A stretch of DNA of 62,448 nucleotides, filler included, from Basidioascus undulatus (lineage: Eukaryota), in NCBI GenBank assembly GCA_000826855.1. It is 12 parts of 12 records of this genome, joined end to end, with 100 filler letters (N's around TTAATTAATTAA, not from the genome) between each part and the next. Parts side by side here need not be neighbours in the genome. Positions count along the whole stretch, not along the records: positions 1 to 24,274 come from JTLS01000243.1; 11 more parts are not named here. The stretch is one strand, 5' to 3'. The notes beneath the pieces are model-generated. The model was given only the letters and a program-made list of their open reading frames with translations. It searched no databases and had not been told where the DNA came from. This document shows positions 2,167-12,608 of the stretch, one piece after another; position 1 is the first letter of the stretch, and every line of letters begins with the position of its first letter. A program made the position numbers and the translations under genes.

Positions 2167-3738
2167 ATGCTCATCGCCATCGTCGGCTTGCCGCTATCAG
2201 GCAAGCAAACCATCGCATCGCACCTCGTGCGGACTCGAAACTTCACGCAACTCTACCTCGATCCGTCCTCGTCCGCTCCGTCTTCGTCGTCCCTCACCGA
2301 CGTGCCGACCACCTTCGAGTCTTCGTCCAAGCTGCTCTCATTCGTGACGAAGAACTGGCGCTCGCCGTTCGTCACGGTCAATGTGGACGAGCGGCTCGCG
2401 GAGGACGAGCTCGACGCGATCTGGAAGAGGCCGTTCGTCCTCCTCGTCGCGGTCGACGCGCCGCTCATGACGCGGTTCGCCCGAGCACAAGCACAGTGCG
2501 CATCGTTCTCATCCAGCACTCACGGATAGAGCTGACCTCGAGCCTCCTGGCAGAGCGGCCTCGACAGGTCTCCCCTCGCCCTCTCTCGAATCGTTCGCTA
2601 CGGAGACCGACGAGGCGCTGTACGGCGGTGACGCCTCGTCCTCGGATGGCAATCGGAGACAGCCGCTAAGGTTGCTCCTCAAGCGCGGGCACCTCACCGT
2701 TTCCAACACGTACACCTCCATACCGCCGCTCCTCGCGAAGCTGGATGAGCTGGACTTTACGGATGGGGAGCGGCTGAGACCTTGCTGGTGAGCTCTGCGG
2801 TCCGAGCGCAGACCATGGGCGCATTTTCTTACCTATAGTTCCTTCCTTAAACAGGGATAACTACTTCATGGTACGAGGTGGGAAGAGGCGCTGGAACAGA
2901 ACTGACCCCAGTGATCCACGTTGGGGTACAGCAACTCGCTGACCTGGCATCCATGCGGTCCAACTGCATGAAGCGCCGCGTAGGCGCCGTGTTGACACAG
3001 AACAACCGCATCCTTGCGACAGGCTGTGCGTTTCCAGCATTATGCCTTTCCTCCGGTCGTCACGCTCACAGTCCGCCGCCCTAACTCGTACATCGTCTTC
3101 CCCTTCTGCCTCTCGCGCCATCTCTCGCTGTTCAACCCTCTAATTCGGCCCCGTTACCTCGCACTTTCGATCAATCTCACCATCTCCTCTCTTTCAATGG
3201 TCGTCTGGGCCACCTCACGCTTCTCCACCGCATCAATATCGTCTCCTTCAACTATTCCGCACTTTTCTCGCTATCGCCCTTCGCACCGCACACCATCTTC
3301 TTCACGTTCGATCCCACCAACTCTTCAGACAATGGCACGCCCCGTGGCCTGACGAACTGCGCAGAAGGCGGCTGCGCGCGGTGCAACTCCGGCATCGCCT
3401 CGGGTCTAAGCATGTCCAACTGCCTCTGCCTGCACGCAGAGGAGAACGCGCTTCTCGAAGCCGGGCGGGGCCGGATCGTCGGCGACGGGGTGATCCTGTA
3501 CTGCAACACGTGAGTTTCCTTTCACCTCCCTGTGCAGCTTGTCCGACAGTCTGACACGCGCATGGGCACGCGCAGGTGTCCTTGCCTCAGCTGCGCCATC
3601 AAGATCATCCAGACCGGCGTGGACGAGGTCGTCTATAACCTCGACTACAGCATGGACGCCGAGAGCGCGCGGATATTCCGCGAGGCAGGGGTGAAGCTCA
3701 GGAGGTACAGGCCCAGGGCATCGGGGATGGATGCATAG
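2167..3738 (+). CDS. DCD1: dCMP deaminase (multi-exon, includes 16-nt exon 2855-2870)
   Basis: RPCWDNYFM, SNCMKRRVGAV, GYNGTPRG, CLHAEENAL and CPCLSCAIKI (HAE plus PCxxC zinc motifs) after splicing GT-AG introns. Confidence 0.94.
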
Positions 3739-11281: not shown

Positions 11282-12608
11282 TCACGCCATGACGCTGTGC
11301 AACACGAGACGTGTGTTCAGCCTTCCGATGGGGACGGAAGGAAGGCGCGTTGAGGATGAAGGGAGAAAGGGAAATAACGTACTTGTCGAACGACACGCCC
11401 TTCACCGATCCGCCCTTCATCGACTGCTTTACCCACAGCTTGAACTGATTCCGGTCCTGGATGAGGTCCTTCGCGGCGTCTGCCATCGGAAACCACGGAG
11501 AGCCGATCGAAAGAGCGAGAGGGAGGATCGTCGGTCGACATAAAGTGCGAGAATGAGAAGAGCCGAGCGATCATTGAGAAGTGCGGATAGCCCAACGTTT
11601 CAAGTCGATGCGAGTCCGAGATAGAGTCGGACGGGTTTGAAAAGTAACAAATGGTACGAGTAGGTAAGTTGATGGAACGTAAGTCGAGCGAGGCGGAAGA
11701 GGAAGTGGGAGAGGTCGAGGAGAGAGGGGTGAGGGAAGGGAAATATGAGGAAGAGGATATCGTCAGCTCGCTTTTCCGGTCACAGTCGAAACCAAGTTTG
11801 TATTTCTTTTTCTCCCATCCCTCCTAGGAACCAGCACGCAACCCCCGCCTTCCAGCACAGCCTCGGAACCTGACGAGCGCACTCACCCTTGTTGAGTGGG
11901 TCGTCCGCGTTCGGCTCGAGGAAGAGGTATTGCAAGCCGACGACAACGGCGTTGAGGTTGAGAACGGGCTTCCAATCCTCGCGGAGGATGTTGAGGCAGA
12001 CGTTTCCCTCGAGGTCGACGTTCGGGTGGTAGATCTGGCGGGGCGGCGCTGCTGACGTCAATGACGCGCCGGAACAGGGAGGGGAGGCAAGAGTGGTGAA
12101 AAGCGCACCTTCTGCACACACTTGACTTTAGGCGCCTCGTGCGGGTAGTTGTTGCTGATGGCAAAGGTGAACTTAAACGCGCCGCCCTTGTACATGCCTG
12201 CGCGGCCCGGCAGCACCGTCAGCCTCCATACGCTGCTAACGCAGCCCGGCTTAGGAAGAGTGCACCCTCGTCAGGCTTGATGACGAGCTCAAAGTTAAGA
12301 AGGTCGTTCGGTTCGGGGAAGTGCGTCTTCATCGTCGAGGGGAGCTCCAGCTCGGTGATGTCTGCCGGGTGCCTCCCAGCGTTCAGCTCTTCGTTTCAGG
12401 CATAGCGCAAGAATCAGACCCGGATAAGACAGGAACGCACCCTTCTGCACCCGCAACTGCGCCGCGCTCGTCTTGGGCTTCTTCTTCGCCGCGGAGTCCG
12501 CATCTTTCTTCATGTTCCAGATCTAAGCAGCCCCTCCGCCTCCAGTTCAGCTGCCTGGCCAGGCCTGCGTGACTCGTAGGCGATCGATATCCTGCGGACC
12601 TTGATCAT
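11282..12608 (-). CDS. UBC12: NEDD8-conjugating E2 enzyme Ubc12
   Basis: [64 protein letters not shown] and [21 protein letters not shown] introns. Confidence 0.95.

Follow-up and report, generated by a model that had tools for sequence, protein, structure and literature searches.

How does the spliceosome select a 3' splice site when the only consensus branch point of an intron lies far upstream of it? This question is raised by the fifth intron of the gene for UBC12, the NEDD8 E2, in Basidioascus undulatus, which was analysed within a window of 62,448 nt (the whole stretch of DNA under study, 12 parts of the assembly joined end to end with filler). Scanning along the RNA and RNA folding have both been considered for distant acceptors, and mammals and yeasts gave different answers. 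In the sections of Gooding et al. (2006; PMC1431707) drawn on here, vertebrate AG exclusion zones extend over 100–400 nt, the class is estimated at 1/160 to 1/400 of introns, and scanning is described as bypassing AGs very close to the branch. For COF1 and UBC13 of S. cerevisiae, the corresponding sections of Gahura et al. (2011; PMC3239191) report a stem that shortens the distance between branch and acceptor and hides AGs, and the authors exclude scanning. In S. pombe, branchpoint-distant exons need Sde2, Cactin and Tls1, and structural bridging has been proposed; the distances are about 24–39 nt, and 30 nt or more is already spliced poorly, according to the part of PMC9508853 drawn on. No report of AG-free distant-branch-point introns in basidiomycetes was found in a literature search that left most subscription journals outside, and the parts consulted of PMC12861292, PMC2219887 and 10.1101/363804 do not mention such introns.

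Intron 5 of UBC12 and its predicted branch point

The original prediction described a 407-nt minus-strand intron joining DPLNK to DAAK, and the gene structure agrees with it (Table 1). The GT-AG ends of this phase 1 intron (GTGAGT...GGCAG) restore an orthologous UBC12 protein with a Pfam UQ_con match, and the 177-aa product aligns without internal gap to eight basidiomycete-type orthologues (129–139 identities). Since this alignment is gap-free, no exon is missing from the gene model, and an unrecognised internal exon, which had been named as a possible objection, is not needed by the protein. A self-trained gene finder lacking a branch-point term also calls the 407-nt intron unaided. The remaining five UBC12 introns are 68–88 nt long, with branch points 22–25 nt before their ends. 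An in-frame ATG just 5' of the intron 5 acceptor (window 11487-11485, minus strand) could begin a 38-residue C-terminal peptide, but probably occurs by chance.

Table 1. Coordinates of UBC12, of the parts of its intron 5 and of further introns with a similar layout; positions without a locus name count along the window.
Feature	Position	Strand	Description
UBC12 (NEDD8 E2) gene	11282..12608	-	7 coding exons; spliced frame 177 aa; Pfam UQ_con
UBC12 coding exons	12608-12600, 12522-12441, 12361-12266, 12197-12109, 12034-11887, 11479-11383, 11294-11282	-	
UBC12 intron 5	11480..11886	-	407 nt; U2-type GT-AG; phase 1
Intron 5 donor-to-branch segment	11768..11880	-	62% purine, 38% G; most internal AGs
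Intron 5 predicted distant branch point, GCTGAC	11762..11767	-	branch A 11763; score 7.0 by the genome's own matrix
Intron 5 C/U-rich tract	11690..11757 (approximate ends)	-	directly 3' of branch point; read from sequence
Intron 5 AG exclusion zone	11482..11766	-	285 nt; 71% pyrimidine
Intron 5 acceptor, CAG	11480..11482	-	first AG downstream of branch point
DCD1 (dCMP deaminase) intron	3026..3328	+	303 nt; best branch point GCTCAC at 3064-3069; 261 nt to acceptor; exons checked with Pfam
RNA14/Suf intron	L036:2952-3216 (C2520)	+	265 nt; branch motif 199 nt from acceptor; AG-free spacer; Pfam profile contiguous at 190|191
QCR9 intron	L217:718-402 (C2546)	-	317 nt; 17 AGs in purine-rich 5' part; branch motif, then 196-nt AG-free spacer
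ATP19 intron	L015:1678-1349 (C805)	-	330 nt; strong branch motif 182 nt from acceptor, weaker one at about 58 nt
Probable fumarase (FUM1) first intron	L207:279-435 (C1946)	+	splits mitochondrial presequence; branch motif 81 nt from acceptor

As a reference, 80 stretches of this genome, 800 kb in total, were used to train this simple gene finder. Because it assigns coding status to only about 242 kb and puts one of the six UBC12 introns in the wrong place, rates derived from it are rough and genes with small exons are under-counted. A branch-point matrix was built from 319 short introns, in which the branch A lies 14–47 nt from the intron end (1st–99th percentile). GCTGAC at 11767-11762, the sole CTRAY anywhere in intron 5, scores 7.0 and holds up as the consensus branch point that had been proposed, with A11763 lying 284 nt from the intron end, counting the AG. 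Over the last 50 nt before the acceptor no candidate scores above -2.7, which is under the weakest 1% and indeed under all of the 319 introns. Weaker branch-like sites are found inside the spacer (3.9 at 201 nt, 3.7 at 186 nt and 2.6 at 75 nt).

AG exclusion and content of the spacer

Ten AGs lie between 11883 and 11768, a normal frequency for the first 120 nt of the intron, and the next one is at 11481. The predicted absence of AG from 11766 down to 11482 is confirmed by these positions, and neither strand of the window has an AG-free run longer than this 285-nt gap. GA, said to be frequent in the zone, occurs there 14 times. In the spacer 5.9 AGs are expected, and only 102 of 100,000 mononucleotide shuffles are AG-free (P about 1e-3). 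The matched control consisted of 134 pyrimidine-rich segments of introns that lie 5' of ordinary branch points; AG is not depleted there (O/E 1.38; 0.18 AG per A), and against these segments 42 spacer A's with zero AG give P about 2e-4. The argument that the lack of AG goes beyond a composition effect is thus upheld by the shuffles and by matched C/U-rich intron DNA. AG-free runs of such length are also found outside introns, with three of at least 280 nt in the 800 kb; the evidence is the coincidence of a zone that starts at the branch point and ends at an acceptor defined by homology, not length alone.

Some other regions may be mentioned here. A 419-nt AG-free run without CTRAY (L098:2057-2479, plus strand) is 3' UTR-like, illustrating that long runs arise outside introns. 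In the window, a 230-nt AG-free run (39883-39650, minus strand) starts with ACTAAC and ends with GAG, and a scan for donor, branch point and acceptor did not flag it. Window positions 31001-35000, beyond contig C1590, form an AT-rich island (GC 0.26–0.32) amid DNA of 50–70% GC, and carry two low-complexity ORFs.

Intron 5 probably belongs to the distant-branch-point introns that carry an AG exclusion zone and are spliced, in the vertebrate style, to the first AG. U2 would pair at GCTGAC, about 120 nt past the donor and beside the pyrimidine tract, and branching would take place there; judging from the layout, the spliceosome would then settle on the first AG that it can use, 284 nt downstream. 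The observed exclusion would be maintained by purifying selection, since any AG newly arising there would divert the second step to itself and disrupt the reading frame. On another account, branching takes place at a weak, non-consensus site nearer to the acceptor, GCTGAC is a leftover, and AG was lost through C/U-rich expansion. It could appeal to the 56 of 436 predicted introns that also have no good proximal motif, and to the long AG-free C/U-rich runs in UTR-like DNA. However, the proximal score lies below every reference intron, C/U-rich intron DNA of the matched kind is not poor in AG, and in five genes the motif marks the start of the zone, all of which makes this account quite improbable.

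The spacer had also been suggested to hold a regulatory structure, which folding does not support: the UBC12 spacer has no excess stability over its shuffles (z = -0.07), and when three spacers including that of UBC12 were folded, none went beyond shuffles (z +0.1, +1.7 and +0.2). A stable stem of the yeast type between branch point and acceptor was sought in the UBC12 spacer and is absent (z -0.07 and +0.12); nor does this spacer hold silent AGs that are masked, since it has no AG at all. Sampled folds reduce the effective distance from branch to acceptor to about 27–72 nt, and the donor-to-branch segment of UBC12 is predicted to form a duplex of -73 kcal/mol with the spacer. These values bear on a yeast-like bridging, in which folding within the spacer, or loose pairing with the G-rich 5' segment (G 0.36–0.46 in six of seven candidates), would bring the acceptor near without scanning, as shown for S. 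cerevisiae COF1 and UBC13 (PMC3239191) and proposed for S. pombe (PMC9508853) in the sections cited. This is unlikely, as the stability does not exceed that of shuffles either for spacers (z -0.07 to +1.7) or for duplexes of the 5' segment with the spacer in seven introns (z -0.9 to +1.0; no sequence-specific pairing). In addition, a stem would mask AGs and make their exclusion needless, yet the exclusion is complete. Under the first-AG reading, we propose that the long spacer is tolerated because it is free of AG, not because it is folded.

A spacer of this length might instead carry some cargo, such as an alternative exon, an RNA (a snoRNA or another), the remnant of a mobile element or a 3' end within the intron. 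One frame through it is open (ORF 11317-11823), but an open frame is guaranteed because the spacer has just two stop codons, and coding scores are -9.5 to -14.5 per 100 nt in all three frames, whereas the flanking exons score +10 to +14. Rfam gives two chance-level matches (E 2.1 and 3, below gathering scores), none being better than E 2, and the spacer is present in a single copy in the genome, which speaks against a repeat or mobile element. CstF-77/RNA14 genes are controlled by intronic polyadenylation, a precedent for an intronic 3' end. The DCD1 and RNA14 spacers are alike at TTCAACCC...CGTTAC, a likeness reached by 5 of 200 shuffles; as a motif family it was discarded, with 7 genome matches against 5 in the control, and no motif common to three spacers was found. 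With no extra exon needed either, cargo of any of these kinds is very improbable.

Recurrence and rarity of the layout

A second case within 9 kb had been announced, and it is real: the DCD1 intron at 3026-3328 (plus strand), which is also called by the gene finder without a branch-point term, has one AG 2 nt past the branch A and is then AG-free for 255 nt. From the layout, AGs 2–3 nt past the branch A appear to be bypassed in both DCD1 and RNA14. When the genome was searched for branch points followed by 26 bases without G, 53 matches were obtained (70 in the reversed control), of which 50 were examined; candidates were retained only if the first AG was at least 70 nt away, so that cases with masked AGs would be missed. 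This search recovered UBC12, QCR9, ATP19 and the probable fumarase gene, and in each of them the first downstream AG is the acceptor, in QCR9 and ATP19 over a distance where about four AGs are expected in each. Most of the remaining matches were set aside, having an AG within 70 nt or being UTR-like, and a candidate at L078 has no exon evidence. The QCR9 exons meet at Pfam positions 43|44, the second exon being a weak match (E 0.24), while both ATP19 exons match Pfam (positions 46 / 52). The gene at L207 is one which we take to be fumarase (FUM1), and Pfam gave no match at its junction. The G content between donor and branch point that was given above for six of seven candidates compares with a median of 0.22 in ordinary introns (90th percentile 0.36–0.37); being G-rich before the branch point, these six candidates reverse the arrangement of ordinary introns in this genome. 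As far as sequence can tell, the layout recurs in at least five genes with exon evidence (UBC12, DCD1, RNA14, QCR9 and ATP19) and probably in FUM1.

L010:671-396 (minus strand; C448), in a gene that is presumably NDUFB11-like and has no Pfam match, shows a donor, a G-rich segment, a branch motif and 120 nt without AG, and then CAG directly followed by GTAAAG. This CAG-GTAAAG is possibly a zero-length or poison exon; the expected next exon was not found up to the contig end.

Among the 436 high-confidence introns predicted in the 800 kb, a proximal branch point is present in 378 and neither kind in 56, and two are consistent with a distal one. The only convincing case of the two is RNA14/Suf, and the other, at L032, was rejected as a probable model error with 27 AGs after its best motif; 1/436 corresponds to an upper bound near 1.3%, with small-exon genes under-sampled. 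In 17 further predicted introns there is a strong distal motif with AGs within the spacer, and these look like gene-model errors. AG-free runs of at least 150 nt number 71 in the 800 kb, compared with 53–65 for GA, AC/GT and CA/TG, and a donor and branch point followed by 100 nt without AG are found 5 times, compared with 1–18 for other dinucleotides, which is no clear excess. Distant-branch-point introns are probably a small minority here, under about 1%. The recurrence in the genome of a distant branch point with first-AG selection is supported, but the proposed lineage-wide mode of 3' splice-site scanning is not: 378 of 436 introns are proximal and one is convincingly distal. The genome-wide AG-free length distribution, offered at the outset as a refuting test, resembles its controls and largely sinks the lineage-wide claim, leaving the individual introns unaffected.

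The UBC12 intron would be one member of a rare class, and any regulatory role of its spacer is hypothetical. A wider proposal, which we regard as doubtful, is that basidiomycetes perform a long-range search for the first AG across hundreds of bases that lack structure and with no need of a PTB-type protein, in a small class of housekeeping-gene introns (UBC12, QCR9, ATP19, RNA14, DCD1 and FUM1) with an inverted layout, G-rich before and C/U-rich after the branch point; through its length the spacer would delay the second step and serve as a point of control, via discard after branching or intronic 3'-end formation.

Origin of the intron and comparison with known systems

Other fungi share the position of intron 5: in 87 of 120 homologues a G follows DPLNK, as would be expected if translation had been read on into an intron there, and 25 of the 120 homologous proteins have inserts of 13–21 codons there (read-through). 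Orthologous introns at four fungal loci are 47–58 nt long, with proximal branch-like motifs in L167/168, L186 and L189. Since these are about 50 nt, the long UBC12 form would be derived, and the intron expansion that had been suggested is borne out for intron 5; the spacer would have arisen specifically in this lineage, through C/U-rich expansion of an ancestral intron about 50 nt long. Judging from their sequences, intron length is not conserved in the distant fungi compared. None of 80 metagenome loci, mostly transcripts or genes without this intron, aligns to the intron (best about 75–77% DNA identity). Loss of U2AF1, U2AF2, Slu7 or Prp18 had been considered, but U2AF2, Slu7, Prp18 and also Cactin are matched in the genome, and the zinc finger of the U2AF small subunit (U2AF1) is present. 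The few introns of the genome built in this way would accordingly use the standard set of 3' splice-site factors. PTB and hnRNP L were sought and gave no match in this assembly, whose fragmentation means that absence is not implied.

If the wider proposal of a long-range search is true, vertebrate distant-branch-point splicing would have a fungal model that is open to genetics. Unstructured AG-free spacers of 180–285 nt in natural fungal introns favour the mammalian solution for basidiomycetes, and one-base AG insertions in short reporter genes make it testable. Gene predictors tuned to fungal branch points no more than about 50 nt before the acceptor may model such introns wrongly.

Compared with known systems, in the sections of the sources cited, the UBC12 intron is similar to the S. 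pombe case in that an intron-rich fungus shows a longer branch-acceptor spacing and Cactin is present, but the spacing is 80–284 nt here and about 24–39 nt there (PMC9508853). It shares a fungal host with the Saccharomycotina introns, whose branch-to-acceptor distances are 60 to 471 nt, although the B. undulatus spacer, unlike COF1 and UBC13, has neither AG nor excess structure (PMC3239191). It differs from the vertebrate class in its host, a fungus with introns of about 70 nt, in being short in other fungi, and in that no PTB/hnRNP L match was found here. Regulatory elements in the spacer, such as silencers, and alternative splicing are typical of the vertebrate cases studied; any counterparts here would be hypothetical, with no motif shared among three spacers. 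On the other hand, as in the vertebrate class (PMC1431707), a branch point and pyrimidine tract open the AG-free zone, upstream AG is normal, near-branch AGs are bypassed, and rarity is similar (about 1/436 here). With its branch point a predicted one, the UBC12 intron appears to display every sequence-level feature of the vertebrate class that was examined.
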